This document shows, one piece after another, positions 10,054 through 54,040 of a stretch of 64,000 bases of DNA; within the stretch, counting starts at the first letter, position 1, and every line of letters starts with the position of its first letter. Location of the stretch: contig CM000151.3 in assembly GCA_000004695.1 (NCBI GenBank), positions 64,001 to 128,000 of the forward strand, read 5' to 3'. The stretch comes from Dictyostelium discoideum (Eukaryota). The position numbers and the translations under genes are program-made. The notes under the pieces were generated by a model. The model was not told the DNA's origin and did no database searches. It saw only the letters and a list, made by a program, of their open reading frames with translations.

Positions 10054-10112
<59 letters not shown>

Positions 10113-22746: not shown

Positions 22747-23968
22747 AGTAAATATGTTAAACAGGAAAATTAAAAAAATAAAAATTAATGAAAAAAAAAA
22801 AAAATAAACACCACACCAAGAATTTTTAAAAAAAAATAAAAAAAAAAAAAAAGAATTCCCAAAAAGAAATTTATTTTTGTACCATAGTAACTTTAAAAAA
22901 TTTCTTTTTTTTTTTTTTTTTTTTTAAAAAATTTTTGCCAACTGAGAATCGGAAAAGAGATGATTGTTTGTTCTATATCTTTTTTTTTTTATTTTATTTT
23001 GGAAATTCCTCTAAATTCTTTAATTTAGAGGATTACCAAAGATGGAAAAAAAAAAAAAAGAGGATATTAGAACAAGCAACCATCTCTTTTCAATTCTTGG
23101 CAAGTTTCAATTCCCCTGTCTCTTCCCCCCTCCTCTCCTTAGCAAAGAGAAGAGGTAAATTTAGTAAAATTATATAACAATCCATTTAAAAATTAAAAAA
23201 AAAAAAAAAAAAAATAAAATAAAATAAAGATATTCCTTCATTAATTATATATATTTTTTTAAAATTATTTTTATTATTTATTATCAAATAATTTATTATT
23301 TATCTCTTATGTGTTTTTTTTTTTTTTTATTTTTTTTTTTTATTTTTATATTTTTTTTTTATTTTTATTTTATTTTTCAATTAAATAAATGTTTTGATAA
23401 GATCTTATCAACATATAAAAAAAAAAAATATTCATTATTTTCACATTTTAAAATCTATAAAAGGGAAACCGATTACTTTATTTAATTTAATTTTTTTTTT
23501 TAATTTTTTTTTATTTTTTTTTTAATTTTTTTTTTTTTTATAATTTTTTTTTTTTGAAAAACCCAATCTTCACCAGACTGAAATTAATTTCTCCATATTT
23601 TTTTTTTATTTTTTTTTTTTTTTTTTTTTTTTTTTTATTTTTTTTTGACCTCCTAAAAGGCTTTTTTACTTTTGCACGAATAAAATAATAAAAAAAAAAA
23701 AAAAAAAAAAAAAAAGAAGATAATTGTTTAATATATATTCACGCAATATTATAATTTTTATTTTTTATTTTTTAAGATTCGTTTTTATTTATTTATTTAT
23801 TATTATTATTATTTTTAATAAAATAAAATAATTTTTAATTTTTAATTTTTTTTAATTTATTTTTAATTATTTATCATCAAGAAGATAATAATATAATAAA
23901 AATAAAAAAAAATAATATAGTAATAATAATAAATTTAAAATAATAAAAAAAAAAAAAAAAAAAAAAAA

Positions 23969-28642: not shown

Positions 28643-28822
28643 AAAATAAAAATTCGAACACATATAAAATAAAATAAAATAAAAAAAATAAATTATAGTT
28701 ATAATTTAAATAGTAGTTGTATTTTTTTTTTTTTTAACTTTTATTTAAGTCTTAAATAAAATAGAATTTTAATTTCTTTATTTGGTTATTTTAAATTCAA
28801 GTAAATTTTTTTTTTTGGTAAT

Positions 28823-28855
<33 letters not shown>

Positions 28856-29267
28856 GTTAAAATGTTAAACATAAAGTGCTTTACAGGTGTTTTTTTATTT
28901 TAATACCCTTTTTAAATATCAATAAACCAATTTTCTATAATTTTTTATTTAAACTCTCTATTTTTAGATATTTTTTTATATAAAAACAATTAGATTGATG
29001 TCATTTTATTTCAATTTTTTTTTTTTTATAAATAAAAAAAAAAAAAAAAAAAAAAAATTAATATAAATAATTTTCTTTTTTATTTTTTATTAATTTATTT
29101 AACATTTCTCTCATATTTTATAAATAATAATATTATAATTATAATTAATTTTAAAGTTAAAAAAAAAAAATGTTTTATTCAAAAATCATAGTTTTTTTTA
29201 TAAATTTTTTAAAATCATTTTTACAAAAACAAAAAATTTTAAAAACTGAAGATCCTATAGTTTTAAT

Positions 29268-29716
29268 TATGTGGCCAAGAGGTAGTGATGTGTAAGTAAA
29301 ATATTATTAAAATTAATTAATTTTTATGTATTAAAAATTAATAACTTTTATAAAGACCAAATAATTATAAATTCTTTCTAGGTTGTTTTTTGAATTATTA
29401 TAAGACAGAGACAGACACAAATACGGGTGATCTCACCACAAATTATAATCATGCTTATTTACGTCATAGGCCAAATCAATTAGGAGAAATAACAACTGAT
29501 TTATTTTATTATAATAGTTTTCAAACTTTTCAATCAATTTGTTCATTTACCAGCAATTATTGTGATAATGATGGCCAGGGTCATTTACAACACAACGTCC
29601 GATATGGTAGAATCATTTTCTCATATAAAGTTTTTAGAAATTTAAATTCTATAAGAGCAGGTGAAGAGTTTAATACAATTGATGTCCTCTATGAAAATAA
29701 TAATTTAAATAGTATA

Positions 29717-29750
<34 letters not shown>

Positions 29751-29866
29751 TTAATAATATAAATAATTATAATAATAACAATAGTAACAATAATAACAAT
29801 AATAATAATAATAATAATATTAATAATAATAATAACAGTATAAATAATATAAATAATAGTATTTAA
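29268..29866 (+). CDS. Hypothetical protein, tentative two-exon model: 29268..29290 and 29356..29866
   Basis: ORF 29390..29866 starts with TTG and has no in-frame ATG. An upstream mini-exon ATGTGGCCAAGAGGTAGTGATGT ends at a gtaagt donor. The acceptor ataaag at 29354-55 gives a phase-consistent product: MWPRGSDVPNNYKFFLGCFLNYYKTETDT... The C-terminus is a long N-rich tail. No domain recognised. Confidence 0.25.
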
Positions 29867-29919
29867 AAATAAATTATTAAAAAATAAATAAAATATTTTA
29901 TTATATAAAAAATGTAAAC

Positions 29920-29958
<39 letters not shown>

Positions 29959-29982
29959 TTTTTTTTTACTTTTTTTTTTTAC

Positions 29983-30013
<31 letters not shown>

Positions 30014-30410
30014 TTTTTATTTTTGCTCAAATTTGTTTTAATTCTCTTCTTTTGTTTTTTGGGGATTTATTTATTTATTTATTTATTTTTTTTTTTTTTC
30101 TTGATATTTTACTCTTTTATTAGATAAAACTTAACAATAAAAAAAGAATAGAAGAAAAGATAAGAATAGAAAAGAAAAGAAAAGAAAAGAAAAGAAAAGA
30201 AAAGAAAAGAAAAGAAAAGAAAAGAAAAGAAAAGTAATTTTATGCGGTTCTGGTTGGTTTTTTTCAACTTTTTTTTTTTATTTTCTATGTGACTTCCCTT
30301 TGATTAAATAAACTAGTTGAATATTTTCCTATTTATTTTATACTTAATTTTTTCGTTTAAATATTTAAAATATAATTTTTTTCTATAAATTTGTAAAAAA
30401 TTATTATTAA

Positions 30411-32261
30411 TCAAGAAAATTCCTCTAGAGGTGTATAATTTTTGCCTAAAAAAAAAGATACCAATGTTTTATTATAACTTTTGTTATTGTCGTTGTTGAT
30501 GGTCGTTTGAATTTGTTTTTTTAAATCTTGAATTTTATCTATAATTTGGCTTTTATTTACCATACGATAATTATCATTATATGGAAAATCTAAAATCAAT
30601 TCATTTATTGAAATTGAGTTTGGTGATTGAAATAATGAAATTACATCATCATAATTATCGAATATTTCTATTGATAATTGAATTGAATAAAGTGTTGTAT
30701 TTGGATACTTTTTCATACAATTTAAAATGAATGAAATCCATTTAGCATTTGAATATAAATTCATTTTATCAACAGAAAATTTGATTCTTCTAATTGATGA
30801 ATAATTATAAGTTGTATTTGGTGATGGTGATGATGAAGATGAAACATTTTTATTAAATATATTTGAGAATAAATATTCAATTATCGACGTAGAGAATGAA
30901 GGTCCTATTGAAAAATTATGAATTACTAAAGTTTTAATAGACGAATTAAATAGTAAAGCTGAAAATGAATTTGGAGAAACACTACAATCAATATTTATTA
31001 ATCTTAAAAATTTTATGGTTTTATTATTTTTAATAAGATTATAAAATCCATCTGATATACATTTGATTGTAGTTTCATTAAATTCTAAATTTGAATATTG
31101 ATAACATTTTATTGGATTTAGAGAATATTCACATGGAAAATTTGAAATGGTTAGATTCACAATTGATGTATTATTAGAAAGTGTGACTATCAATTCATTC
31201 CATTCTTTGGAAATATTTTTTGAAAGATTATCTCCATTAAAACATTGTTTAGTTATTTTACATCCATGATAATGTTTGTTTATTAAATGAAACGGTACTT
31301 TAATTGCAAGTGTTATTAAAGTTGGACATCTTTTATTCAAAGATATCAAAGTACCCGGTTGAAATGTACTTGCATGTAATGAAAATGGTTTTGAATAAAG
31401 TTTTAAATGTTTTAATTGAGTTAGATCATTATTAATTAAATGAATAAATTGAAAACTATCAATTTTTAATTCAATTACTTTATTAAAATTATCAAATTTA
31501 CAAAAACAATAAATAAAATGAGGACTATAAAAATATTTATATACAACCAAGTTATTTGATTCCTTTTTCCAAAATTTAAATTCTTCACCTAAAGGTTTAT
31601 TAAAACATACAATTTCAGACAGTAATTGACGATTTGGGATGAGTGGAAATGAGTATTTTGAGTTTTTTAACATATCATCTACATAAATAAAAGATACTCT
31701 TTGAAAATTTTTATATTTTTCTGTATCTGGGTAATTTTTACCATTACTTTTTATAATTATAATTTTATTACTAAAAAAGTCTGAAATTATTTCTTTTTTA
31801 ATTTTAATAATTGACCAATTTTTATTTATAATTAATTTAAAAATTTTTATCAAACTTTTGCTTAAACTATATTTTGAAATTGACATTAACCATATATAAA
31901 TTGGTTTGTTTTTTAAATATCTACTTGGTTTAATACTTTTCATTGAATTATTAATCTTTGAAATATTTCCAAAATCTTCTAAAAATTGATTTTGATACAA
32001 TTCTTTTCTAAACCATTTGTCCATAATTATATCTTCACCATGATCTTTTATTATTTCATATGAAATGAGTGGGGAAATAAAAAAATACCATTCTTTTGAA
32101 ACCAAACATAAATTTAAAATTTCATCTTGGTAACAATAAAATTCCAATTTTGAATAATAAAAATTTTTATTAATATATTTTTTATTTTTTGGAATTAATA
32201 AATAATTTATTAATAATATTATTATATCTTTTTCAATTATTTTTGTTAATTTTTTATTCAT
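30411..32261 (-). CDS. Member 1 of a Dictyostelium-specific family: an F-box-like N-terminus followed by leucine-rich-repeat-like units
   Basis: 616-aa intronless ORF. The N-terminus is ..QDEILNLCLVSKEWYFFISPLI (F-box-like). The central region has repeated L-x-x-L-x-L/N-x-x-I units. It is about 85% identical to the paralogue at 33475..35331. Confidence 0.7.
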   Translation of the reverse strand: MNKKLTKIIEKDIIILLINYLLIPKNKKYINKNFYYSKLEFYCYQDEILNLCLVSKEWYFFISPLISYEIIKDHGEDIIMDKWFRKELYQNQFLEDFGNISKINNSMKSIKPSRYLKNKPIYIWLMSISKYSLSKSLIKIFKLIINKNWSIIKIKKEIISDFFSNKIIIIKSNGKNYPDTEKYKNFQRVSFIYVDDMLKNSKYSFPLIPNRQLLSEIVCFNKPLGEEFKFWKKESNNLVVYKYFYSPHFIYCFCKFDNFNKVIELKIDSFQFIHLINNDLTQLKHLKLYSKPFSLHASTFQPGTLISLNKRCPTLITLAIKVPFHLINKHYHGCKITKQCFNGDNLSKNISKEWNELIVTLSNNTSIVNLTISNFPCEYSLNPIKCYQYSNLEFNETTIKCISDGFYNLIKNNKTIKFLRLINIDCSVSPNSFSALLFNSSIKTLVIHNFSIGPSFSTSIIEYLFSNIFNKNVSSSSSPSPNTTYNYSSIRRIKFSVDKMNLYSNAKWISFILNCMKKYPNTTLYSIQLSIEIFDNYDDVISLFQSPNSISINELILDFPYNDNYRMVNKSQIIDKIQDLKKQIQTTINNDNNKSYNKTLVSFFLGKNYTPLEEFS

Positions 32262-32735
32262 TTTTTAAAATTATTCAAGTTTGGAAAATGTTTAATATTT
32301 TAAAATTTCACTTGTTTTTTTACTTAATATATTTAATTGAAAAAATACTGTTTCTTAAAATAGATTTTAAATTGATTTTTTTAATTAATTTCAAAAAAAA
32401 AAAAAAAAAAAAAAAAAACATTTTATAATTTAAAAAAAAACTATTGTAAATTAAAAAATAATAAAAAAAAATCAAATTTAAAAAATTTATTACAGATCTG
32501 AATTTTATTGGAAATAAAAAAAACTGATGGGTTTTTATTTGAAATTAATTATTTTTATTATTTTTTATTTTTTTTTAAATTTTTATTCCAAATTATGTGT
32601 ATCTTAAAAGAAAAAAAAGAAAAAAAATTTTGAGAAAAATTAAAATTTCCTTTTTAAGTTTTTTATCTATTGTGCACTCTTTTTTTAAAAAAATTGATAA
32701 TTGGATATTATTTAATTTTAAATTATTTTTATAAT

Positions 32736-32770
<35 letters not shown>

Positions 32771-33474
32771 AAGGCAAGACAAGGGTAAAAAAAAAAAAAC
32801 TTTAAGTTATAATTTGTAAGGGTGTAACATTCCCAATACAAGAAGTTAATTATTTATATATATCTATATAGGGGTTTTTATAGTATTATGTGCTATAGCA
32901 TTTTAATTCTTATTTTCTAAAATTAATATTAATTATTTCTCTGAATAATTAATTCTTTTTAAATTAATTTCTCATTAATTTCTCATTAATTTTTTTTCAA
33001 TATTTTAAAACTATTTATACTAAAATCTATTAACCTCTTTGGTCTTATATTTGAAAAATCTTAAAAATTAAAATAAATAAAATAATTTAATTTAAATATA
33101 ATTAATTATTATATTATGGAAATGTTTAAACATTACATTTAATATAATTTTAATTAAATTAACCCATTTGAAATTTCAATAGAATAAACATTAATTAATA
33201 GAATATTTTAATGTTATAACAAGATATTTTTGACCTCTGGTTACAGTAGGTGTAAAAATTTCAGCATTAAAGTGGTGAAAAGTTATTATTATGCCTTTAA
33301 GAAACTGTAAAAGATATTGTTTGCTAAGGTTAAAAATTAAAAAATTATGCTCCTAGACACAAAGTAATTTATTATAATTTTATATATAATTATAATTTAA
33401 TATATATAATTATAATTTTATCAATTTAGATTTTAAAAATATATTTTTTTTTTTTCTATTTATTTGTTAAGCAA

Positions 33475-35331
33475 TCAAGAAAATTCCTCTAAGGGTGGAT
33501 AATTTTTACCAAAATAAAAAGATACTAATGTTTTATTTTCACTTTTGTTATTGTTGATGGTAGCTTGAATTTGTTTTTTTAAATCTTGAATTTTATCTAT
33601 AATTTGTCTTTTATTTACTATACGATAATAATCATGATATGGAAAATCTAAAATCAATTCATTTATTGAGATTGAGTTTGGTGATTGAAATAATGAAATT
33701 ACATCATCATAATTATCAAATATATCTATTGGTAATTGAATTGAATAAAGTGTTGTATTTGGATACTTTTTCATACAATTTAAAATGAAAGAAATCCATT
33801 TAATATTTGAATATAAATCAGTTTTATCAACAGAAAATTTGATTCTTCTAATTGATGAATAATTATACATTATATTTAATGATGATGAAGATGATGATGA
33901 TGAGGATAATGAATCATTTTTAGAAAATATATCAGAAAATAAATATTCAATTATTGATGTAGAGAATGAAGGTCCTATTGAAAAATTATTTATAACTAAT
34001 GTTTTAATCGTTGAATTAAATAGTAAAGCTGAAAATGAATTTGGAGAAACACTACAATCAATATTTATTAATCTTAAAAATTTAATGGTTTTATTATTTT
34101 TAATAAGATTATAAAATCCATCTGATATACATTTGATTGTATTTTCATTTAATTCTAAATTTGAATATTCATAACATTTTATTGGGTCTAGAAAGTATTC
34201 GCATGGAAAATTTGAAATGGTTAGATTCACAATTGATGTATTATTAGAAAGTGTGACTATCAATTCATTCCATTCTTTGGAAATATTTTTTGAAAGATTA
34301 TCTCCATTAAAACATTGTTTAGTTATTTTACATCCATGATAATGTTTGTTTATTAAATGAAATGGTACCTGAATTGCAAGTGTTTTTAAAGTTGGACATC
34401 TTTTATTCAAAGATATCAAAGCACCTGGTTGTAATGTACTTGCATGTAATGAAGAAGGACAAGAATAAAGTTTTAAATGTTTTAATTGAGTTAGATCATT
34501 ATTAACTAAATGACTAAATTGTAAACCATCAATTTTTAATTCAATTACTTTATTAAAATTATCAAATTTACAAAAACAATATATAAATTGGAGACTGTAA
34601 AAATATTTATCAATAAACGAATTACATGGTAACTTTTTCCAAAACTTTAATTCTACACCTAAAGGTTTATTAAGACATGCAATTTCAGACAGTAATTGAC
34701 GATTTGGAATGGGTGGAAATGTGCATGTTGCTTCATATTTCATTTCATTTACACAAATGAAAGATACTCTTTTAAAATTGTTATATTTTTCTGTATCTGG
34801 ATAATTTTTACCATAACTTTTTATAATTATAATATTATTACTAAAAAAGTCTGAAATTATTTCTTTTTTAATTTTAATAATTGACCAATTTTTATTTATA
34901 ATTAATTTAAAAATTTTATTCAAACTTTGGCTTAAACTATATTTTGAAATTGACAATACTGATATATAAATTGGTTCGTTTTTTAAATATCTACTTGGCC
35001 CAATGCTTTCAATTGAATTATTTATGTTTGAAACATTTTTAAATTGTTCTATATATTGATTTTGATACAATTCTTTTCTAAACCATTTGTCCATAATTAT
35101 ATCTTCACCATGATCTTTTATTATTTCATATGAAATGAGTGGGGAAATTAAAAAATACCATTCTTTTGAAACCAAACATAAATTTAAAACTTCATCTTGG
35201 TAATAATATAATCCCAATTTTGAATAATAAAAATTTTTATTTACATATTTTTTATTTTTTGGAATTAAAAAATAATTTATTAATAAAATTATTATATCTT
35301 TTTCAATTAATTTTGTTAATTTTTTATTCAT
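33475..35331 (-). CDS. Member 2 of the same F-box/LRR-like family, a tandem paralogue of 30411..32261
   Basis: 618-aa intronless ORF, collinear with the paralogue and carrying small indels (poly-S). Fragments of this gene recur at 36020..36238 and 41233..42290. Confidence 0.7.
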   Translation of the reverse strand: MNKKLTKLIEKDIIILLINYFLIPKNKKYVNKNFYYSKLGLYYYQDEVLNLCLVSKEWYFLISPLISYEIIKDHGEDIIMDKWFRKELYQNQYIEQFKNVSNINNSIESIGPSRYLKNEPIYISVLSISKYSLSQSLNKIFKLIINKNWSIIKIKKEIISDFFSNNIIIIKSYGKNYPDTEKYNNFKRVSFICVNEMKYEATCTFPPIPNRQLLSEIACLNKPLGVELKFWKKLPCNSFIDKYFYSLQFIYCFCKFDNFNKVIELKIDGLQFSHLVNNDLTQLKHLKLYSCPSSLHASTLQPGALISLNKRCPTLKTLAIQVPFHLINKHYHGCKITKQCFNGDNLSKNISKEWNELIVTLSNNTSIVNLTISNFPCEYFLDPIKCYEYSNLELNENTIKCISDGFYNLIKNNKTIKFLRLINIDCSVSPNSFSALLFNSTIKTLVINNFSIGPSFSTSIIEYLFSDIFSKNDSLSSSSSSSSSLNIMYNYSSIRRIKFSVDKTDLYSNIKWISFILNCMKKYPNTTLYSIQLPIDIFDNYDDVISLFQSPNSISINELILDFPYHDYYRIVNKRQIIDKIQDLKKQIQATINNNKSENKTLVSFYFGKNYPPLEEFS

Positions 35332-35687
35332 TTTTTAAAATCATTCACCTATTGAATAAAAAAAAAAAAACTTTTAAAAATTTTAAAAAATTATAGTAAA
35401 TCACTCAAATAAAAAAAAACTAATAAAAAAAATCATTTAAGTTTATTATAGATCTGTAATATATTGGTATTAAAAAAATTAAAGGGTCTTTTTATTTGGA
35501 AGGAATTATTTTTTTTTTTTTTAATATATTCCAAAATTATCTATTTTTAAAGAAAAAAAAAAAAAAAAATTGATAAAAATAGAAATTTCCTTTCAACTTT
35601 ATCTATTATCTGCTCTTTATTTAAAAAATTGATAATTTTTAAATTTAAATTATTTTAGTAATAATATTTTTTTGTTTTTTTTTTTTT

Positions 35688-35718
<31 letters not shown>

Positions 35719-35745
35719 GTTTAAATTCGTTTTAATTTCTTTTTG

Positions 35746-35776
<31 letters not shown>

Positions 35777-35809
35777 TAAAAGAAAGAAAAGAAAAGAAAG
35801 AAAAGAAAG

Positions 35810-35840
<31 letters not shown>

Positions 35841-36019
35841 AAAAGAAATAAAAGAACAGAAAATAAAAGAAAAGAAAAAAAAACATGCTCAGAGCCTAAC
35901 TAAAAATAAATAAATAAATATACAAAAATAAAAAAGAATAATAAAAGAAAAATAGTAATAAAATTGCTTTTTTAAAATTTTTAATTTATTAAAAATAAAA
36001 TTTTTAAACTCTTTATTTA

Positions 36020-36238
36020 TTATTTTCTTCGATTAAATAAACAAATTGAATATATTTTCCTATTACAATTAAAATTATTAATCAAGAAAAGTGGATAATT
36101 TTTACCAAAATAAAAAGATACAAATGTTTTATTATCTTTTTTGTTATTGTTGTTGATGGTCGTTTGAATTTGTTTTTTTAAATCTTGAATTTTATCTATA
36201 ATTTGTCTTTGATTTGCTAGATCGAACCATTGCATCAT
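36020..36238 (-). pseudogene. 3'-terminal fragment (last ~60 codons) of an F-box/LRR-like family gene
   Basis: QRQIIDKIQDLKKQIQTTINNNNKKDNKTFVSFYFGKNYPLFL matches the C-termini of the 616- and 618-aa paralogues. Unrelated sequence lies upstream. Confidence 0.6.
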
Positions 36239-36546
36239 ATCAAAATTTTGCTCGGAATTGATAAAATTATTATGTGAACAGACACGAAATATGTTCGTTA
36301 TACAATTTAAAAAAATAATGCAGTTTCTACTATTATTATTATTATTATCATTACCAATGTTATTTAAATAACATAATAATCCTTTAAAAATATTATCATT
36401 TTTTGGAATTTCATCTAACCCGATTGATTTCTCACCAAAATCAGTGTTATTTAATGATGTTTCTAATGATGTTGATGATGGTGAGTTTGATTTTTTTAAT
36501 TCTAATAGATATTTGATGATTTTATTTGAACCTGTCTCGATTGAAT

Positions 36547-36951
36547 TTAAAAGATCTGTTTTTGTTGGTAATTGAATTCATTTATAAATAATTTATAAAT
36601 TTCTAAATTCTTTGATTGTATTATTGCAGTTGATACATAAATTGGTGAAGAGTAATAATACCTTTGAATTTTGAAAAAGTTTCTATAAAATTTGAAATCA
36701 TTTTTAATTATTTCAAACAATTTCTTTAAATAAATTAAATCTTTACGCCAACTAGATTGATCAGACTCTTTACGCCAACAAGTTTCACCAAATTCTAAAT
36801 ATCTACAATTTCTATAAACTTTTTCTTTTAAAATACTAATTTGATTTGAATCTATTAGTTTAGTTATTGACGATACTGAATCGTAACTAAATGAATATTG
36901 GTTATACATAAATGAGAATATCTTTTTATAAATTGCTTTATTTCTAAACAA
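36547..36951 (-). pseudogene. Fragment of a second duplicated gene family; a near-identical copy lies at 42300..42668
   Basis: ORF KLFRNKAIYKKIFSFMYNQYSFSYDSVSSITKLIDSNQISILKEKVYRNCRYLEFGETCWRKESDQSSWRKDL... starts at TTG. The frame is open upstream only to an in-frame TAA and has no canonical donor. An adjacent upstream ORF encodes ..EIIERIKIVKKRKREYEEEHERKENTNSFNKIIK*. Both lie inside the duplicated block. Confidence 0.35.
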
Positions 36952-37360
36952 TTTCCAAAATAATATTTCAATTGGTTCTATATTATCTGTAATTGTTTAT
37001 TTTATGATTTTATTGAATGAATTAGTATTTTCTTTTCGTTCATGTTCTTCTTCATATTCTCTTTTTCTTTTTTTTACAATTTTAATCCTTTCAATTATTT
37101 CTTGTTTATTTAAGTGATTTATTTCTATACAATATTTCTTTAATTGATTTTAAATTCTTTTTCTCTAATTCACAATTATTATCATTATCTTTATCATCTT
37201 ATTAATTAAAGATGATAAAAATATATAAATTATTTTTCATTGTTGTGGTGGTGGGGGAAATTAAAAAATAAAAAAAAAAAAATATAAAAAAATATAAAAA
37301 AAAAAAAATAAAATAAAACAAATAAAAAACATTTTTATGGTGTAACGGATTTTATTTAGT

Positions 37361-37391
<31 letters not shown>

Positions 37392-37439
37392 TTTTTTTTT
37401 TTTACTATTTCTTTGAAATTTCGTTGAATATTATTTTTA

Positions 37440-37600
37440 AACGAATTCTAATGACTACATAACCCCTGTAAGCGGTTAGCAGCCCCTTGTAATCCTTACA
37501 ACCAGTGTAGCCCACAAATCCGGCTATTCGTCTTACAGTTCCTATTAGCCGCTTACAGGGTTACTTAGTCATTTTGCGCGTTGGCGGTGTAATTAATATT
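37440..37600. other. GC-rich island with a ~20-bp imperfect inverted repeat (CCCCTGTAAGCGGTTAGCAG ... CCTATTAGCCGCTTACAGGG). Candidate structured ncRNA or MITE-like element.
   Basis: About 50% GC within a region that is more than 80% AT. The inverted repeat was read directly. It contains CCCACAA, which resembles the Dictyostelium upstream sequence element (DUSE) of ncRNA genes, and CCTTACAACCAG, which resembles the class-I RNA motif CCTTACAGCAA. A second copy with a deletion lies at 43200..43290. Confidence 0.4.
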
Positions 37601-38028
37601 TATTTATATTTTTATTATTCGCTGGAAAAAATTCATTATTTTATTAGATATTTTATGATACGTAATTTCTCATATATCTAATAAAATATTGAATTTTCTA
37701 AAATTTTTTTTTCCAGCGAATAATAAAAAAAAAAAAACTGTTTTGGTTAACCATGGGGTGATTTATTGTAATTTTTTAATAATTTTAGTTCTGTTTTTTT
37801 TTTTTAAATGGAGATATCAGAGAGATTATTATGATATTTTGAATAATTGGATCATAGTAATAAACAATATTTTTAATTTTTTTCTTTTTTTTTTTCTTTT
37901 CATTCTTTTTTTTTTTCTTTTCATTCTTTTTTTTTTAGTACTTAATCTTTATTTTTTTCATCTTTCAAAATAAAAAAAAATATTTATATAAATTTTAACT
38001 TTAAATTAAATAAATAAATAAATTTTAG

Positions 38029-38452
38029 AATGACTGAAGAAGTGCATAAATTGAAAATTACAATATTTACTGATAAAGGGAGATCAACAATAAGTGGTGG
38101 AGGTAAGTTAATTAGAATTATTAATTTATAAATATTTAATTTTGGTTTATATATTAAAAAATGTAACATTTAATTTCATTCTTCTGGCTTTTTTAAAAAT
38201 ATAGATTTTCCTCTACCTGTATTACCTTATCCTGCACCATATACTTTTAGATTATTTGATTACGAAATTGAAGGCCCAAATTTAACCAATAAAGAATTTA
38301 AAGTAAAAACAGGTAAAATTGAATACAAAGGAGAAGAATTTGATATTCCTTCATCATCTAAGGGCTCATGGAGAGGAGTAGATGAAGAAATGGATTTAAT
38401 CTATGTTACAATATATCCAAGTAGACAACCAAAAAAAGTTTTTCATTATTAG
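38029..38452 (+). CDS. Small hypothetical protein (about 107 aa) with two exons, 38029..38101 and 38205..38452. Copy 1 of two.
   Basis: ATG..GGTGGAG then a gtaagt donor, and an aaatatag acceptor, phase 1. Product: MTEEVHKLKITIFTDKGRSTISGG-DFPLPVLPYPAPYTFRLFDYEIEGPNLTNKEFKVKTGKIEYKGEEFDIPSSSKGSWRGVDEEMDLIYVTIYPSRQPKKVFHY. Copy 2 at 43780..44202 is about 93% identical at the protein level, and its splice sites are conserved. Confidence 0.55.
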
Positions 38453-38757
38453 ATCTTAAAAACAGATCTGAAACAATTAAAACAAAAATAAAAAATTTTA
38501 AAATTTTATATAAAAAAATAATTATGATTAAAAAAAAAATATGTGTGGAAAAAAAAAAAAATTAAAAATTAAAAATATATTTGTTTATGGTGTTATGTTT
38601 TTTGGTAAGGTTTAAAGTGATCAAAAAATTATCATTCAAACTTGTAAAAAAACAATAATAATAAATAATAATTTAAAAACAAAATAAAGATTAATTTGCA
38701 TTATCCAATTTTTTTTTTTTTTTTTTTTTTTTTGATTTTGTTTAATTTGATTCGATT

Positions 38758-38792
38758 CTATTTGATTTGATTTGATTTGATTTGATTTGATT

Positions 38793-38800
<8 letters not shown>
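38758..38800. repeat. (GATTT)n pentanucleotide repeat followed by poly-T. Also present in copy 2 at about 44815..44862.
   Basis: Read directly. Confidence 0.9.
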
Positions 38801-38844
<44 letters not shown>

Positions 38845-40272
38845 CATTATAATCTTTTTTCCAATTATTTCCATTATATATAAATATATTGGAAAATCTT
38901 CCATTTTCCATTTTCCGCCATAATATGGATTTTTTTTTTCAGGAAATTGGCCAACACTATTGTATACTATATTCATAACAATCTGGAAGGTTGATGGCTA
39001 TATCAAGAGGATCATCAGAAGTCCATGGGAAGGGAATTTATTGGTTTCGGAAACATCATATGGATGAATGATACATTTGAAATTTAAAACATTATTATTA
39101 ATTGAGGCATTTTTATTAGATCGAGTTAAAATTTTATTGTGGAATTTTCATAATTAATGTGGAATTTTCCACTTTTTTTTTTTTTTTTAGAAATTTTTCA
39201 CCCCTACCCCTTTTCAATTTTATTTGAAAAATAGAATGTTGATATTTGATTTGATAATTTTCAAATTATTTATTAGTAATTGTAATTAATTGAAATAGAA
39301 ACCTTATTTTATTTTATTTTTTTTAAATATAATTACTGATAGTTTTGTACTGTAATTGGTAACTCTTTATTATTGTTTTGAAAAATGGATTATTAATACG
39401 ATTCAATTCTTCTTAATACTTATTATGACCTTTAATTTTAATTTCTTTAAAAAATATGTTTCTTGATTTTTGTTCTTGTTTTGTTGAAATATTATTTATT
39501 AAATTTTTAAATTCTTTAATAAATTCATCAACTAATTCCTTATCATTATATAATGTAAAAAAAAAAAAAAAACTCTGTTTATGACAACAAAACAGTCACA
39601 ATTTTTTTAACTATAAAACAAAAATTATTATCTTATTTTAAATTTTTACTTTATTTTTTTTCCATGCGGGTTCAAAAAAAAAGCTTTTTTTTTTTTTTTT
39701 TTTTTTAGTAAACAAAATTTTTTTTTTTTTTTTTTTTTTTTTTCGCACCCCTTCATTTACTTATTTTTCTTGTTGATATCATTAAAATCAATAGTTTTTT
39801 TCAAAATGTCAAAAAGAATTATTAATTTCAATTGGTTCATATAGATTGGGAAATTAATGAATCATTTAATAAAGACAATTATTAACTTTATTTATTTTAA
39901 ATTGTAGATATATTCTCAAATCCAAAAACAGGTATGGGTCATTCAAATGATGCTCTTTCACTTTTTATAAAAGCTTAAAGAGAGATTGGTTATTATCCAA
40001 ATATTGATAAAGCAATTTTCACAACTCCAGTCACAACTTTAGCTAAAACCACTATTGATTTAACTGCCCATGTTATAACTATATTAATGTGGTGTTGAGA
40101 TCATTACAAACTATGAAGTATTTCTAGGAAAGAGATGAAGGTACTAACAAGATCTTACTTTTCAAAAAGTTGATTTAACATTGACTCTTTAATAAATTGA
40201 ACATCTTCATTTGTTTCAAATAAGACAAGATCAAAAAATACTACTTTAATAACATTATTGGGATCCAAATAT

Positions 40273-41064
40273 TTACCAACGTGGCATTTTTTTAAATCTT
40301 GGGTGATGAAATTTCATTTTAGAGAGTTTATCGATTGTATTGGTTACTAAAGCAATAAAATCTTGATTTTTCCAATCATTGTGAGAAGCTGGTGATACAT
40401 ATGGCATCATTAAAGCTGGCTTGGAGTTCCAAGTTCCAACCTATTATAAATATATATATTAATAATTGTTTTGATTTATACCACCATTTTTAACTTTGAA
40501 ATAAAAATTACCATAAATACTTACATGTGCACCCAAACCCCAAAGTTCTCTCCACTTTTCACACTCTTTGATCAATTCGTTTTCTGGTTTAATATTACAT
40601 TTTGAGAATTTTAATACGAAAACATGTCCTTCCAAAATACCAAAAAAGACACAACATAACCATACTCTTCCATGTTCTCCTCCTTTTAAATCATATAATA
40701 AAACACATGCCTTAACTAATTTCAATGGGGTATCTATAAAATAATGTAATTTTTTGATATTAATGTTGACCCAAAACCATGAAGATTGAACTACTTGTAT
40801 ATACATTCTTTTTACATCAAGTAAAGGAATTTCTGATTTTCTTCTAGAGTAATACATCTTCATCAATACAGAGTATAAAACTTTTGGTAATTGTTGATCT
40901 GAATATTTAAAAACCTTTGAGCCATATAAAATACGTTTACAGTGAGTTGGTGGTATAATATCATTATAATCGTTCGTTATTGTGGAATTTTGTAAATTTG
41001 AGGTTGATGTTAAAGTATCTGGTTTCTGAAGAGTTGTAGTAGTTGATTCATTTGATAATTCCAA
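40273..41064 (-). pseudogene. 5'-truncated copy of a duplicated gene (PD-(D/E)xK-like family). Exons 41064..40525 and 40440..40273 are retained.
   Basis: Encodes ..ESTTTTLQKPDTLTSTSNLQ..KRMYIQVVQSSWFWVNINIKKLHYFIDTPLKLVKACVLLYDLKGGEHGRVWLCCVFFGILEGHVFVLKFSKCNIKPENELIKECEKWRELWGLGAH, then a gtaagt donor, then VGTWNSKPALMMPYVSPASHNDWKNQDF..PRW*. The upstream part of the gene is replaced at 41080 by the duplicated A/B block. Confidence 0.5.
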
Positions 41065-41232
41065 TTTGGGAGCTTGAGCAGACTATGCTCCTAGACACAA
41101 AGTAATTTATTATAGTTTTATATATAATTATAATTTTATATATATAATTATAATTTTATATATATAATTATAATTTTATCAATTTAGATATTAAAAATAT
41201 ATTTTTTTTTTTTCTATTTATTTGTTAAGCAA

Positions 41233-42290
41233 TCAAGAAAATTCCTCTAAGGGTGGATAATTTTTACCAAAATAAAAAGATACTAATGTTTTATTTTCAC
41301 TTTTGTTATTGTTGATGGTAGCTTGAATTTGTTTTTTTAAATCTTGAATTTTATCTATAATTTGTCTTTTATTTACTATGCGATAATAATCATGATATGG
41401 AAAATCTAAAATCAATTCATTTATTTAAATTGAGTTTGGTGATTGAAATAATGAAATTACATCATCATAATTATCAAATATATCTATTGGTAATTGAATT
41501 GAATAAAGTGTTGTATTTGGATACTTTTTCATACAATTTAAAATGAATGAAATGAAATATGAAGCAACATGCACATTTCACCCCATTCCAAATCGTCAAT
41601 TACTGTCTGAAATTGCATGTCTTAATAAACCTTTAGGTGTAGAATTAAAGTTTTGGAAAAAGTTACCATGTAATTCGTTTATTGATAAATATTTTTACAG
41701 TCTCCAATTTATATATTGTTTTTGTAAATTTGATAATTTTAATAAAGTAATTGAATTAAAAATTGATGGTTTACAATTTAGTCATTTAGTTAATAATGAT
41801 CTAACTCAATTAAAACATTTAAAACTTTATTCTTGTCCTTCTTCATTACATGCAAGTACATTACAACCAGGTGCTTTGATATCTTTGAATAAAAGATGTC
41901 CAACTTTAAAAACACTTGCAATTCAGGTACCATTTCATTTAATAAACAAACATTATCATGGATGTAAAATAACTAAACAATGTTTTAATGGAGATAATCT
42001 TTCAAAAAATATTTCCAAAGAATGGAATGAATTGATAGTCACACTTTCTAATAATACATCAATTGTGAATCTAACCATTTCAAATTTTCCATGCGAATAT
42101 TTTCTAGACCCAATAAAATGTTATCAATATTCAAATTTAGAATTTAATGAAAATACAATCAAATGTATATCAGATGGATTTTATAATCTTATTAAAAATA
42201 ATAAATCCATAAAATTTTTAAGATTAATAAATATTGATTGTAGTGTTTCTCCAAATTCATTTTCAGCTTTACTATTTAATTCAACGATTA
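41233..42290. pseudogene. Rearranged fragments of the F-box/LRR-like gene 33475..35331. The 3' end lies on the minus strand (41233..41540), abutted to an internal segment on the plus strand (41543..42290).
   Basis: ORF 41233..41415 (-) equals the last 60 aa of the 618-aa gene. ORF 41543..42385 (+) equals its central 270 aa. The two pieces are in opposite orientation, so there is an inversion breakpoint near 41540. The 3' flank (41085..41232) is the same as 33345..33475. Confidence 0.7.
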
Positions 42291-42299
42291 AAACATTAG

Positions 42300-43090
42300 T
42301 TATAAATAATTTTCTAAATTCTTTGATTGTATTATTGCAGTTGATACATAAATTGGTGAAGAGTAATAATACCTTTGAATTTTGAAAAAGTTTCTATAAA
42401 ATTTGAAATCATTTTTAATTATTTCAAATAATTTCTTTAAATAAATTAAAATTAAATCTTTACGCCAACTAGATTGATCAGACTCTTTACGCCAACAAGT
42501 TTCACCAAATTCTAAATATCTACAATTTCTATAAACTTTTTCTTTTAAAATACTAATTTGATTTGAATCTATTAGTTTAGTTATTGACGATACTGAATCG
42601 TAACTAAATGAATATTGGTTATACATAAATGAGAATATCTTTTTATAAATTGCTTTATTTCTAAACAATTTCCAAAATAATATTTCGATTGGTTCTATAT
42701 TATCTGTAATTGTTTATTTTATGATTTTATTGAATGAATTAGTATTTTCTTTTCGTTCATGTTCTTCTTCATATTCTCTTTTTCTTTTTTTTACAATTTT
42801 AATCCTTTCAATTATTTCTTGTTTATTTAAGTGATTTATTTCTATACAATATGATTTTGCAATTTCTTTAATTGATTTTAAATTCTTTTTCTCTAATTCA
42901 CAATTATTATCATTATCTTTATCATCTTATTAATTAAAGATGATAAAAATAATTTAAATATATAAATTATTTTTCATTGTTGTGGTGGTGGGGGAAATTA
43001 AAAAATAAAAAAAAAAAAAAAAATATAAAAAAAAAAATAAAAAAAAAAAAACAAATAAAAAACATTTTTGTTGTGTAACGGATTTTATTT

Positions 43091-43137
<47 letters not shown>

Positions 43138-44727
43138 TTTTTACTATTTTATTAAATATTTATTTCTTTGTTTGAATATTATTTTTAAACGAATTCAAAT
43201 GACTACATAACCCCTGTAGCCCACAAATCCGGCTATTCGTCTTACAGGGCCTATTAGCCGCTTACAGGGGTTGTGTAATTAATATTTATTTATATTTTTA
43301 TTATGGGCTAATTCTTTTTTTATTATTTAATGATAATTTATATTAAAATATGATATATTATTAATTAATATTTAATATTAATTTGTTAAATATTTTATTA
43401 AATTATAATCTCTTTATAAAAAGTGAGAAATTACTGTCATAAAATATCTAATAAAAAAATAAATTTTCTAAAAATTTTTTTTCCAGCGAATAATAAAAAA
43501 AAAAAAACTATTTTGGTTAACCATGGGGTGATTTATTGTAATTTTTTAATAATTTTAGTTCTGTTTTTTTTTTTTAAATAGAGATATCAGAGATTATTAT
43601 GATATTTTGAATAATTGGATCATAGTAATAAACAATATTTTTAATTTTTTTCTTTTTTTTTTTTCTTTTCATTCTTTTTTTTTTAGTACTTAATCTTTAT
43701 TTTTTTCATCTTTCAAAATAAAAAAAAAATATTTATATAAATTTTAACTTTAAATTAAAATAAATAAATAAATTTTAAAATGACTGAAAAAATGCATGAA
43801 TTGAAAATTACAATATTTACTGATAAAGGGAGATCAACAATAAGTGGTATAGGTAAGTTAATTAGAATTATTAATTTATAAATATTTAATTTTGGTTTTT
43901 TTATTAAAAAATGTAACATTTAATTTCATTCTTCTGGCTTTTTTAAAAATATAGATTTTCCTCTACCTGTATTACCTTATCCTGCTCCATATACTTTTAG
44001 ATTATATGGATACAAAATTGAAGGCCCAAATTTAACCAATAAAGAATTTAAAGTAAAAACAGGTAAAATTGAATACAAAGGAGAAGAATTTGATATTCCT
44101 CCATCATCTAAGGGCTCATGGAGAGGAGTAGATGAAGAAATGGATTTAACCTATGTTACAATATATCCAAGTAGACAACCAAAAAAAGTTTTTCATTATT
44201 AGATCTTAAAAACAGATCTGAAACAATTAAAACAAAAATAAAAAATTTTAAAATTTTTTCATAATTGAATTGATATAAAAAAATAATTATTATTAAAAAA
44301 AAAATATGTGTGGAAAAAAAAAAAATTAAAAATAAAAAATATATTTGTTTATGGTGTTATGTTTTTTGGTAAGGTTTAAAGTGATCAAAAAATTATCATT
44401 CAAACTTGTATACCAGTGTTCGACCTTTTTCCACTTTTGGAAAAAAAGGGTGTTTTTTTTAATTTCCCTTCCATTCCATGTTTTTTTTAAAAACTTCCAT
44501 ATTAATATAATATTTTTTCCATTTTTTTTTTTTCAATTAACCAGGGAAGGCCGAAATTTTTTTTTTTATTTTTTTTTTGTAATATCTTAATAAACGTTTA
44601 TTAATTAAAAAAAAAAAAAAAAAAAAAAGTAAAATGATAAATAATATTAATAAAAAAACAATAATAATAAATAATAATTTAAAAACAAAATAAAGATTAA
44701 TTTGCATTATCCAATTTTATTTATTTA

Positions 44728-44776
<49 letters not shown>

Positions 44777-44858
44777 ATTTTGTTTAATTTGATTCGATTC
44801 TATTTTATTTTATTTGATTTGATTTGATTTGATTTGATTTGATTTGATTTGATTTTTT

Positions 44859-44899
<41 letters not shown>

Positions 44900-47800
44900 C
44901 ATTATAATCTTTTTTCCAATTATTTCCATTATATATAAATATATTGGAAAATCTTCCATTTTCCATTTTCCACCATAATTTGGATTTTTTTTTTTCCGGA
45001 AATTGGCCAACACTATTGTATACTATATTCATAACAATCTGGAAGGTTGATGGCTATATCAAGAGGATCATCAGAAGTCCATGGGAAGGGAATTTATTGG
45101 TTTCAGAAACATCATATGGATGAATGATACATTTGAAATTTAAAATATTATTATTAATTGAGGCATTTTTATTAGATTGAGTAAAAATTTTATTGTGGAA
45201 TTTTCATAATTAAAATTATTTTTTTTTTTTTTTTTAGAAATTTTTCACCTTTACATTTTCCCTATTTTTTCTTTTTTTCACCCCTGCCCCTTTTCAATTA
45301 AAAAAAAATAGTGAAAAAAAAAGTAAATTAATAAATTATAAAAAAACAAATAAAAATAAATAAATTATATTATTAATTTTATTTGAAAAATAGAATGTTG
45401 ATATTTGGTTTGATAATTTTCAAATTATTTATTAGTAATTGTAATAAATTGAAATAGAAACCTTGATTAAGAGGTACCTCATTTTATTTTATTTTTTTTA
45501 AATATAATTACTGATAGTTTTGTACTGTAATTGGTAACTCTTTATTATTGTTTTGAAAAATGGATTATTAATATGATTCTTCTAAATACTTATTATGACC
45601 TTTAATTTTAATTTCTTTAAAAAATATGTTTCTTGATTTTTGTTCTTGTTTTGTTGAAATATTATTTATTAAATTTTTAAATTCTTTAATAAATTCATCA
45701 ACTAATTCCTTGTCATAATATAATGTAAAAAAAAAAAAAAAAAAAAACTCTGTTTCTGACAACAAAACAGTCACAATTTTTTTAACTAAAAAACAAAAAT
45801 TATTATCTTATTTTAAATTTTTATTTTATTTTTTTTCTGTGTGGGTGCAAAAAAAAGCTTTTTTTTTTTTTTTTTTTTTTTTTTTGGTAAAACAAAATTT
45901 TTTTTTTTTTTTTTTTTTTTTCGCACCCCTTCATTTACTTATTTTTCTTGTTGATATCATTAAAATCAATAGTTTTTTTCAAAATGTCAAAAAGAATTAT
46001 TAATTTCAATTGGTTCATATAGATTGGGAAATTAATGAATCATTTAATAAAGACAATTATTATTAACTTTATTTATTTTAAATTGTAGATATATTCTCAA
46101 ATCCAAAAACAGGTATGGGTCATTCAAATGATGCTCTTTCACTTTTTATAAAAGCTTAAAGAGAGATTGGTTATTATCCAAATATTGATAAAGCAATTTT
46201 CACAACTACAGTCACAACTTTAGCTAAAACCACTATTGATTTAATATTCAATGAAAACAGTTGGAATCAAAATAAATCAAAACCAATTTCAATTTATAAT
46301 TTAAATGGTAATTCAATTGAATTGAAATTATTTTATAGTGTATTAGAAAACAGTTTTAAATGTAATGAAATCCAATTCGATGAATGGATTGAATTAGTTA
46401 CAAAATCAAATGGAAAATCTTCAAAAAGATATTCAACATTCCACATTCTCAATAATCAAAATTAATGAATCAATCATTTTAAATAATATTAATAATAACA
46501 ATAACTAAAATAATAAAAAATAAAAAATATCATAATCAATAGTTGGCAAACGTACACTATTAACCAATGCTTAAGTACCAGGTTGTGTTGAAAATGATCC
46601 CAAAGAATATATACCTATCACCTTGGTTTGTAATTGGAAATGAATAATCTGTATATTCTCAAATAAACAATTAATGGTGTCGTACTATCAACTGGTTTCA
46701 AATACAATACCACATTACAATCTTGTTCAGAAAGATATTATTATTTTTATATATTTTTTAAATGTTATAAATTAATTTTTCTTTGAAAAAAAAAAAAAAC
46801 AAAACAAAATAAAAAGTACTTTTTTTTTTAAATTTAATCAAATTAATGGAAAATGTCCAAACCAAATTACAAGAATTTAAAACAAATTAATAAACTATTT
46901 TTATTTGTATAATGAATTTGAAAGTTGATTTTATTTTATTTTATCATTTGATAGATGATATTTTGGTGAATAATAATGAAAATTGTGATCCAACTTTTTA
47001 ACTGCCCATGTTATAACTATATTAATGTTGTGTTGAGATCATTACAAACTATGAAGTATTTCTAGGAAAGAGATGAAGGTACTAACAAGATCTTACTTTT
47101 CAAAAAGTTGATTTAACATTGACTCTTTAATAAATTGAACATCTTCATTTGTTTCAAATAAAACAAGATCAAAAAATACTACTTAATAACATTATTGGAA
47201 TCCAAATATTTAGCAACGTGACATTTTTTTAAATCTTGGTGATGAAATTTCATTTTAGAGAGTTTATCGATTGTATTGGTTACTAAAGCAATAAAATCTT
47301 GATTTTTCCAATCTTTGTCAGAAGCTGGTGACACATATGGCATCATTAAAGCTGGCTTGGAGTTCCAAGTTCCAACCTATTATAAATAGATATTAATAAT
47401 AGTTTTGATTAATACCATTTTTAACTTTGAAATAAAAAAATAACCATAAATACTTACATGTGCATCCAAACCCCAAAGTTCTCTCCACTTTTCACACTCT
47501 TTGATCAATTCATTTTCTGGTGAAATATTACATCTTGAGAATTTTAAAACGAAAACATGTCCTTCTAAAACACCAGCGGAGGCACAACATAACCATACTC
47601 TTCCATGTGCTCCTCCTTTTAAATCATATAATAAAACACATGCCTTAACTAATTTCAATGGGGTATCGATAAAATAAAGTAATTTTTTGATTTTAATGTT
47701 AACCCAAAACCATGAAGATTGAACTACTTGTATATACATTCTTTTTCCATCAAGTAAAGGGATTTCTGATTTTCTTTTAGAGTAATACATCTTAATCAAT

Positions 47801-48010
47801 ACAGAGTATAAAACTTTTGGTAATTGTTGATCTGAATATTTATAAACCTTAGAGCCATATAAAATACGTTTATAGGGAGTTGGTGGTAAAATATCATCAT
47901 TATCGTTCGTTTTTGTGGAATCTTGTAAATTTGAGGTTGATGTTTAAGTATCTGGTTTCTGAAGAGTGGTAGTAGATTCATTTGTTAATCCCAATTTGGA
48001 AGCTTGGGCA
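42300..48010. repeat. Segmental duplication, copy 2, comprising units D and E. It includes copy-2-specific segments at about 44400..44630 and 46210..47000.
   Basis: Collinear and near-identical with 36593..41080. Contains the second GC-rich island (43200..43290), the second copy of the small gene (43780..44202), the (GATTT)n repeat, and the longer copy of the PD-(D/E)xK-like gene. Confidence 0.8.
43780..44202 (+). CDS. Small hypothetical two-exon protein, copy 2 (paralogue of 38029..38452)
   Basis: MTEKMHELKITIFTDKGRSTISGIG / DFPLPVLPYPAPYTFRLYGYKIEGPNLTNKEFKVKTGKIEYKGEEFDIPPSSKGSWRGVDEEMDLTYVTIYPSRQPKKVFHY. The intron positions match copy 1. Substitutions are mostly non-synonymous-tolerant, so both copies appear intact. 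Confidence 0.55.
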
Positions 48011-48972
48011 GATCCATCTGAAATAGGTAACCAACATACCCTCCAGCTCTCATATGTTGTTGAAATACCATAAACATCTTCCTGACCATACATTTCAGCG
48101 ATACTTAACACGTAATTCAACGTTTGGCCATGAAGCTTATCATTCTCCATAATGTTTTTACTTGGCTTTTTAACTTCAATAATACCTATAGGTAACCCAA
48201 TTGAATTTGCAAGTACCATAATATCAGGTTTCAAATCACTAACACCAAAATAGCTTGAACAATATGCATTTATACCACATGATTTGATAATGTCATTAAC
48301 TGCGGTTCTAACATAAAAAGCAATGTCGGATTCTGTGGAGTAATGGAGGTAGCTTCCGTTTCCAAGAGACCCCCATAATAAATTGTGGCATGGAATTGGT
48401 TTTATGTCTGCTAAAATTTCAAAACTTTTCGATACCAAAGTTGCAGGTTGATGATTTTTCCCAACAGATGGATTTGACATTGAGCCTGACTTCTCACCCA
48501 AAGGAGGTAAAGCATTAGCAAAAATATCCTTCTTTGGTTCTGTATTATGTAAATTGTATATTAATTAGTTAAAAAGTTTTAAAAATTAATTTATTATGAT
48601 TTAACCTACCATACAAAATATTCTTCTTTGGTTCTGTATTATGTAAATTGTATAATTAATCAGTTAAAAAGTTTTAAAAATTAATTTATTAATTATGATT
48701 TTAAAAGGGATAAACCTACCATATAAAACATAAATATGAGTTGGAATATTGTTTTCATTTAATTTGGTTTCGATATCCAATTCTTTTTCCCCCAATCCAT
48801 CACCTACTGGTTGTTTATCGAAGATTGATAAATCTTTTGTTTTATATTGTACTCCATTATCGCTAATATATTCTGCTATTATTTTTAAAACATCATATAT
48901 TCTGTTAACTGACTCAAATTTAATTTCATCTTTTTTATTATTTAAATAAACAATACAACTAAAAGAAACCAT
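47110..48972 (-). pseudogene. Longer copy of the duplicated PD-(D/E)xK-like gene. It carries an in-frame nonsense codon and indels.
   Basis: Exon 1 (48972..~48718) encodes MVSFSCIVYLNNKKDEIKFESVNRIYDVLKIIAEYISDNG..., ending at a gtagg donor. It continues ..EKSGSMSNPSVGKNHQPATL..DLKPDIMVLANSIGLPIGIIEVKKPSKNIMEND.. (D...E-x-K, resembling a restriction-endonuclease-like fold). There is a TAA at 47944-46 where copy 1 has TTA (Leu). There is a frame change between 47981 and 47799, and single-base deletions in the last exon relative to copy 1. Confidence 0.5.

Positions 48973-53990: not shown

Positions 53991-54040
<50 letters not shown>

Follow-up and report, generated by a model that had tools for sequence, protein, structure and literature searches.

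What kind of gene pair occupies positions 30,411 to 35,331 of a 64,000-nucleotide stretch of Dictyostelium discoideum DNA, and are both copies still functional? The stretch (assembly GCA_000004695.1, contig CM000151.3, positions 64,001 to 128,000, hereafter the window) carries two long open reading frames (ORFs) named here paralogues A and B. Proteins of this family have three parts, an N-terminal F-box-like motif, a middle region and a C-terminal region of leucine-rich repeat (LRR) type. To judge from their sequences, A and B are functional protein-coding paralogues under purifying selection and not pseudogenes. The best-supported reading of their products, at a probability of roughly 55% given sequence comparisons and structure models, is an Fbxl-type substrate receptor of a Skp1-cullin-F-box (SCF) ubiquitin ligase with a divergent F-box.

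Coding integrity and selection in the tandem pair

Both genes lie on the minus strand 1.2 kb apart and are thus arranged head-to-tail (Table 1). The GC content of the window is ~20% throughout, for which we estimate a stop frequency of ~0.1 per codon. An ORF of 616 codons is far beyond chance at this composition because stops are frequent in such DNA. The proteins are identical at 525 of 620 positions (85%, BLASTP) with six gap positions, and the coding sequences share 91.9% of nucleotides. All six gap positions fall into two tracts, one of poly-S (NKN----VSSSSS vs NKNDSLSSSSSSSSS) and one of poly-N (NNDNNKS vs N--NNKS). The initial annotation, which described two intronless head-to-tail genes of 616 and 618 amino acids with ~85% identity and divergent poly-S and poly-N indels, is confirmed by the ORF list and BLASTP in each of these points. 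In the D. discoideum assembly GCA_054883475.1, which is 99.68% identical to the window across 21.6 kb, the matching ORF of A differs by one amino acid and the ORF of B is unchanged.

The ratio of nonsynonymous to synonymous divergence (dN/dS) between A and B is 0.51 (dS 0.145, dN 0.074, Nei-Gojobori) and significantly below 1 (Fisher's exact p = 3e-4), hence the genes are not pseudogenes. This comparison had been proposed together with the annotation, on the expectation that a lack of domain profile matches combined with a ratio of about 1 would indicate pseudogenes. F-box, LRR and FNIP matches in Pfam are indeed missing, but the ratio is not ~1. Split by part, the first 300 codons give 0.82 and the remaining C-terminal part gives 0.31. 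Differences between A and B are distributed as 50/33/67 over the three codon positions, with an enrichment at the third. A related assembly, L001 (GCA_054859355.1), holds two further intact copies, which show dN/dS of 0.56-0.71 against A and B. The neighboring DIL-domain gene has a ratio of 0.16 between the window and L001 (dS 0.088). On these estimates, constraint on A and B is relaxed relative to the housekeeping neighbor and strongest in the C-terminal half.

That the open frames are accidental, and A and B merely decaying pseudogenes or non-functional recent duplicates, appears very improbable. Such decay might be suspected from the rather high ratios of 0.5-0.7 (~0.8-1.4 in the N-terminal 300 codons), from the family fragments close by, from the breakage of the sole copy in D. 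cf. discoideum into three ORFs, and from the closest annotated protein of strain AX4 being only ~27-31% identical. However, four intact ORFs of 610-618 codons (A, B and both L001 copies) have been maintained over ~8-10% nucleotide divergence, and every indel among them is a multiple of three. The ORFs are intact in the window, in the 99.7%-identical assembly and in a lineage ~11% divergent. When decay of A was simulated with 150 random substitutions drawn from the observed spectrum, none of 5000 runs left the ORF open. Conservation also drops outside the genes. The upstream flanks of A and B align with many gaps at just 74.5% identity, compared to 91.9% in the coding sequences, and the downstream flanks can barely be aligned. 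We rejected the pseudogene reading based on the significantly reduced dN/dS (most clearly in the C-terminal part), the in-frame indels and the simulations, and consider it largely refuted already.

Table 1. Positions of the paralogues, their parts, the family fragments and the duplicated units in the window.
Feature	Position	Strand	Description
Paralogue A	30411..32261	-	intronless ORF, 616 amino acids
Paralogue B	33475..35331	-	intronless ORF, 618 amino acids
F-box-like segment of A, residues 8-67	32061..32240	-	putative; hhalign against F-boxes and insert-deleted Pfam scan
F-box-like segment of B, residues 8-67	35131..35310	-	putative; same alignment columns as A
LRR-type alpha/beta solenoid region of A, about residues 280-605	30447..31424	-	~9 predicted strand-helix units, AlphaFold2
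LRR-type region of B	33511..34494	-	predicted from alignment with A
Fragment 1, old relic of family 3' end	36089..36247	-	~B residues 562-612, ~70% amino acid identity (tblastn)
Fragment 2, 3' end of broken B copy	41236..41556	-	B residues 512-618, 98% amino acid identity (tblastn)
Fragment 3, inverted middle of B	41543..42313	+	B residues 194-450, 98% amino acid identity (tblastn)
Duplication unit 1	33346..41082		holds B, fragment 1, a 134-amino-acid ORF, intergenic DNA and a 5'-truncated DUF5898 gene
Duplication unit 2	41084..48012		B copy reduced to fragments 2 and 3; DUF5898 gene complete
DUF5898 gene, unit 1	40459..41064	-	5'-truncated
DUF5898 gene, unit 2	47380..47799 + 47944..48501	-	complete

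An F-box-like motif and an LRR-type region

The most conserved feature of the family in a ten-member alignment is the N-terminal (F/L)(P/x)xY(I/L)xxxI(I/V)xx(L/I)INYLL, followed by an insert and then YxDEI(I/L)xxx(L/M)VSKxWxxxISxxISxxI. The motif has 13 invariant positions among members that are 26-34% identical. In A, the segment consists of a putative helix 1 (IIEKDIIILLINYLL), an insert, and YQDEILNLCLVSKEWYFFISPLIS as putative helices 2-3. The insert measures 21 amino acids in A and B and ~65 amino acids in the relative DDB_G0267986. Using hhalign with ten textbook F-box segments as reference, all above Pfam cut-offs when checked, DEILNLCLVSKEWYFFIS aligns with helices 2-3 of the F-box (P 7e-5, probability 63%). 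Helix 1 aligns as well if the insert is removed (IIILLINYLL vs ELLLGIFSCL, P 1.8e-5, probability 78%). The hhalign score of 27.1 was reached in none of 200 column shuffles (mean 8.5, standard deviation 1.8, maximum 16.1), and only alignment windows containing the N-terminal motif match the F-box. Among 24,736 Pfam models, F-box or F-box-like ranked top for insert-deleted constructs of five of the six members. The construct of A scored 15.2 bits for both models (E 0.02), below the cut-off, and that of B 14.5-14.6 bits for F-box-like and F-box. A Dictyostelium citrinum member was the sole construct above the cut-off of 20.5 bits, with 21.4 bits. Members P0007 and P0011 keep FPDY at the position of the LPxE start, and AlphaFold2 places N-terminal helices at residues 11-22, 45-54 and 56-67 with a predicted local distance difference test score (pLDDT) around 50. 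The N-terminus is probably a degenerate, insert-bearing F-box-like motif, which may adopt a genuine F-box fold.

Several results weigh against this assignment. Neither the F-box nor the F-box-like model of Pfam (PF00646, PF12937) matches native A or B even at E <= 10. The best native member for the F-box, DDB_G0272490, scores 13.7 bits against the cut-off of 20.5 (E 0.061 for F-box and 0.16 for F-box-like in the same segment). A typical F-box is an uninterrupted three-helix module of ~40-50 amino acids with an LPxE...L..VcKrW pattern, and the conserved LP at its start is absent in A and B. The hhalign match spans just 20 columns and concerns one chosen family rather than a whole library, and the insert-deletion scan relies on engineered sequences. 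Both AlphaFold2 models have pLDDT <50 over most of the N-terminus (range 30-59). Searches of Protein Data Bank (PDB) sequences with full-length and N-terminal family profiles and with phmmer recovered no F-box or LRR protein and only chance matches to CCA-adding enzymes. Foldseek with the model of the N-terminal 110 residues (pLDDT 46.9) also returned nothing meaningful, a blank not counted as a negative result because the model confidence is too low. A literature search with the identifiers of the AX4 relatives DDB_G0272540, DDB_G0272490 and DDB_G0267986 found no paper, and neither expression nor interaction data turned up. The F-box-like N-terminus suggested initially stands as far as the match to helices 2-3, the shuffles and the top Pfam rank after insert removal are concerned. 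It does not extend to the native proteins, which remain below every curated threshold and lack the LP, nor to the models, which are uninformative.

The middle region (residues ~90-280, ~200 amino acids) is without a recognizable fold and is the fastest-evolving part of the proteins. In the full-length AlphaFold2 model, residues 285-605 form a curved alpha/beta solenoid of about nine repeated strand-helix units, with block-mean pLDDT mostly 50-84. Foldseek against the PDB matched LRR domains of NLRP proteins, ribonuclease inhibitor (RNI), COI1, D3 and CARMIL (best E 4.6e-4). An RNI-type LRR fold of the C-terminal half is supported at the fold level by a model of moderate quality. Several points count against the LRR call. 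The call is based on a model with a mean pLDDT of 47 overall and an alignment of eight sequences. Pfam LRR models do not match A or B even at E <= 10, and the only LRR profile to appear is PF24758 (LRR_At5g56370), at E 0.012 and below the cut-off in two of eight members. Internal sequence repeats are marginal in an hhalign self-comparison (off-diagonal P about 0.046-0.048). At E <= 10, FNIP repeats (PF05725) match none of the 10 members scanned, A and B included, which led us to reject an FNIP reading. The Pfam scan for F-box, LRR and FNIP advised earlier thus returns no match in A or B, and the LRR-like label holds at the level of fold but not of profile matches. Because A and B stay below the Pfam thresholds, we file them as F-box-like/LRR-fold proteins rather than as certified F-box proteins. 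The functional label of an F-box/LRR adaptor of SCF is plausible based on sequence and models, below formal thresholds.

Distribution of the family and turnover of the locus

The family has a very narrow distribution. A phmmer search with B against 1.84 billion (1.84e9) cluster representatives yielded two matches at E <= 1e-3, one being B's own subfamily and the other a D. citrinum protein of 32% identity. At this threshold, the exhaustive protein search found no homologues outside D. discoideum-complex assemblies and D. citrinum. Word-indexed searches matched exclusively Dictyostelium proteins, including five of A/B type, each encoded in a new D. discoideum or D. cf. discoideum assembly. The same searches recovered the three AX4 relatives and ACTFIW_001726 as distant members. 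A profile search (alignment A1) of a 5.8-billion-protein collection recovered already known close relatives and nothing further. Seven ORFs of the window looked up by exact sequence, A and B among the absent proteins, had no identical entry in the collection. Together, the sequence searches show a family confined to the D. discoideum species complex and D. citrinum, and the two matches among the cluster representatives support the lineage specificity proposed in the initial annotation. An annotated AX4 protein of the A/B subfamily was not found, the nearest ones being the distant relatives noted above. DDB_G0272540, DDB_G0272490 and DDB_G0267986 are true distant relatives with 26-34% identity, full-length alignment and the same N-terminal motif. 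They differ from A and B in forming a separate subfamily, with at least DDB_G0272540 at another genome site. UniRef labels DDB_G0272490 as 'F-box domain-containing'.

Decayed family members accompany the pair. Beyond A, B and three fragments, tblastn found no further family sequence in the window. Fragment 1 shares 91% of nucleotides with fragment 2 over 129 nucleotides. Fragment 2 belongs to a longer stretch of homology including the 3' flank of B (41084-41553), and fragment 3 is 99.1% identical to positions 33982-34749 within B. Fragments 2 and 3 are 94-99% identical to B in DNA and adjoin in opposite orientation, which indicates a single broken copy of B with a partial inversion, not two relics of separate origin. 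Residues 1-193 and 451-511 are missing from this copy, and its middle part lies in inverted orientation. All three fragments reported initially are real, but their homology exceeds the listed ORFs and two of them belong to the one broken copy.

The broken copy lies within a tandem segmental duplication of ~7.7 kb, the two units of which align in colinear blastn blocks of 88-94% identity. The right breakpoint falls inside the DUF5898 gene. The identity of the inverted B piece exceeds that of the rest of the unit, which suggests a later gene conversion or a secondary event. Additional sequences were duplicated with the unit. An ORF starting with MFRNKAIYKKIFSFMYNQYSF occurs at 36547-36951 (-) and 42300-42668 (-) without significant Pfam match. 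A Dicty_CAD (PF05720) gene is annotated in the duplicated unit of the near-identical assembly (L002 3575-3997, corresponding to window positions ~38050-38475), so a gene of calcium-dependent adhesion type may be duplicated in the window. Arrays with a 10-bp period lie at equivalent sites in both units (38605-38880 and 44631-44922, ~60-70% identity between shifted copies) and probably represent AT-rich simple sequence. A 185-amino-acid ORF (47944-48501, -) lies upstream of the DUF5898 ORF of unit 2 and is probably an upstream exon of the same gene. Below threshold, this ORF matches the N-terminal part of type I restriction enzyme R protein (PF04313, E 2.4e-4), and it contains a D...IGIIEVKKP pattern recalling PD-(D/E)xK nucleases. 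A nuclease-like domain in the Dictyostelium DUF5898 protein is possible on this basis.

Copy number, orientation and intactness of the genes vary between strains. The cluster is bordered on one side by the DIL-domain gene, which ends at 28642, and on the other by a SpoU-type methylase gene at about 51738, and this position is syntenic in three lineages. The DIL-to-SpoU interval spans 23 kb in the window and in GCA_054883475.1, both with the head-to-tail pair plus fragments, compared to ~6.6 kb in D. cf. discoideum L003 (GCA_054859205.1). The two intact copies of L001 are arranged head-to-head. L003 has a single copy in opposite orientation (10001-11826), split into ORFs of 122, 301 and 117 amino acids by one stop and a 1-nucleotide deletion, which might reflect either a true pseudogene or homopolymer errors of the assembly. 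The L001 assembly is labelled D. discoideum, yet its syntenic flank (window positions 23527-30237, coding gene included) shares only ~89% of nucleotides with the window, which makes it look like a cryptic species of the D. discoideum complex.

The genes also show signs of concerted evolution. In quartet comparisons of A and B with the two L001 genes, the paralogues of each genome pair up at 26 sites, positional orthologues at 12, and the third arrangement is favored at 4, with a ratio of 14:0:0 within nucleotides 901-1500. These counts point to gene conversion in the LRR-coding part. The locus thus combines the two intact tandem genes with decayed copies, of which one is an old relic and one is young but broken, and the arrangement differs between related genomes. 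Both observations agree with the birth-and-death cluster proposed initially. Birth-and-death is a fair label for the locus as read from these sequences, provided that concerted evolution is added.

Public gene models reflect this structure poorly. Where both ORFs are intact in GCA_054883475.1, the models have 537 amino acids and a fused 820 amino acids. The latter (NCBI model ACTFIT_002019) splices fragment 1 and the equivalent of ORF 36547-36951 onto paralogue B, and looks like an over-merged gene model from the sequence comparison. The model of D. cf. discoideum L003 has 544 amino acids and introns bridging the ORF breaks. Annotation of this family deserves caution, as Pfam is blind to A and B and models of 537, 820 and 544 amino acids stand for plain ORFs of 610-618 codons or for a broken copy. 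Downstream of the cluster, a single ORF (53705-56704, +) encodes a 999-amino-acid protein with RING, B-box and Kelch propeller in a TRIM-like layout. This ORF is syntenic in D. cf. discoideum.

Proposed function and competing explanations

The canonical Fbxl layout is an N-terminal F-box followed by C-terminal LRRs. In an Fbxl-type receptor formed by A or B, the N-terminal F-box-like motif would dock on Skp1 of the SCF ubiquitin ligase. Target choice would fall to the LRR solenoid, perhaps together with the variable middle region. Skp1 binding and ubiquitin-ligase function of A and B are predictions of this reading. The locus itself is reshaped by tandem duplications, inversions, gene conversion and decay. 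Compared to known Fbxl-type receptors (SKP2, FBXL2/3/17, TIR1, COI1, D3/MAX2), A and B differ by the lack of Pfam F-box and LRR matches at threshold, by the missing LP and by ~200 unrecognized, fast-evolving residues between motif and LRR. The family further differs by an insert of 21 to ~65 amino acids between helices 1 and 2. FNIP-repeat/F-box proteins of Dictyostelium and mimiviruses similarly combine an N-terminal F-box-like motif with LRR-related repeats, and Dictyostelium is a shared organism. However, the A/B family is set apart by the lack of FNIP matches in the scanned members.

Inserts within F-boxes have a precedent in Dictyostelium. Boland et al. 2022 (PMC9485057) predict F-box-like sequences in 38 Dictyostelium Skp1 interactors, but only if inter-helix insertions are allowed. 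Most receptor domains predicted for these cryptic F-box-like interactors are LRRs according to the same paper. Neither the A/B family nor the AX4 relatives are named in its text or in the supplement searched, which counts against an SCF role. For lineage-specific, rapidly evolving F-box clusters of Caenorhabditis and plants, tandem arrangement, differences in copy number and presence among wild isolates, fragments of pseudogenes, and selection that is relaxed or diversifying are reported (PMC8120010, PMC12951971). The A/B locus shares the tandem layout, the variation between isolates, the fragments and the relaxed selection. In contrast to those clusters, the A/B family is very small, with two copies here and a few distant paralogues in each genome. 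In A and B the LRR part is also the more conserved one (dN/dS 0.31), with the fastest evolution upstream of it.

The main competitor of the SCF receptor, possible but clearly less favored, sees A and B as LRR-type scaffolds acting outside SCF. The N-terminal motif would then be either an F-box that has decayed or a helix pair (LVSKxW) without relation to F-boxes. Example roles are binding or regulatory functions as in RanGAP, tropomodulin or axonemal LRR proteins. The scaffold would account for native proteins staying below every curated F-box threshold, for an insertion within the would-be F-box, for the missing LP and for the unconfident N-terminal models. Yet no other part of the family is as conserved as the N-terminal motif. 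This motif has the invariant positions noted above, matches F-box helices 2-3 specifically and makes F-box the top Pfam model after insert removal. The combination with a C-terminal LRR corresponds to the Fbxl layout, and insert-bearing F-box-like sequences are predicted for many Dictyostelium Skp1 interactors (PMC9485057). These points lead us to retain an SCF substrate receptor with divergent F-box as the preferred reading.

Strain variability at the locus invites two further explanations with low probability. The pair might constitute a recognition-type locus, with a degenerate F-box/LRR receptor diversifying under conflict and the middle region as the specificity determinant. We regard this as unlikely, including the conceivable forms of conflict such as surveillance of bacterial or symbiont effectors, between-strain incompatibility or a social-conflict factor. 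By analogy, the locus would then resemble hyper-variable F-box clusters implicated in nematode divergence. We give slightly less credit still to A and B being part of a mobile or selfish element or of a toxin-antidote or incompatibility-type locus. The same flanking genes enclose 23 kb or ~6.6 kb depending on the strain, the 7.7 kb segmental duplication and inversion are consistent with mobility, and the duplicated neighbors are without assigned function (DUF5898, sub-threshold nuclease-like match). However, no transposase, integrase or reverse-transcriptase domain was found among the ORFs scanned, the cluster keeps its syntenic place between the DIL and SpoU genes in the three lineages, and ordinary tandem duplication with non-allelic recombination accounts for the rearrangements.

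Other eukaryotes are well known to carry fast-evolving clusters of F-box/LRR genes. A and B are a new, very narrow family of this well-known general kind, and the locus is a fairly ordinary fast-evolving cluster rather than a new type of system. The value of the finding lies chiefly in the Dictyostelium F-box repertoire and in the annotation quality at the locus. If the N-terminus indeed binds Skp1, a lineage-restricted receptor family with an insert-bearing F-box would join the poorly charted repertoire of Dictyostelium. The locus would then provide a compact case of substrate-receptor genes being born, converted and lost among closely related social-amoeba strains.

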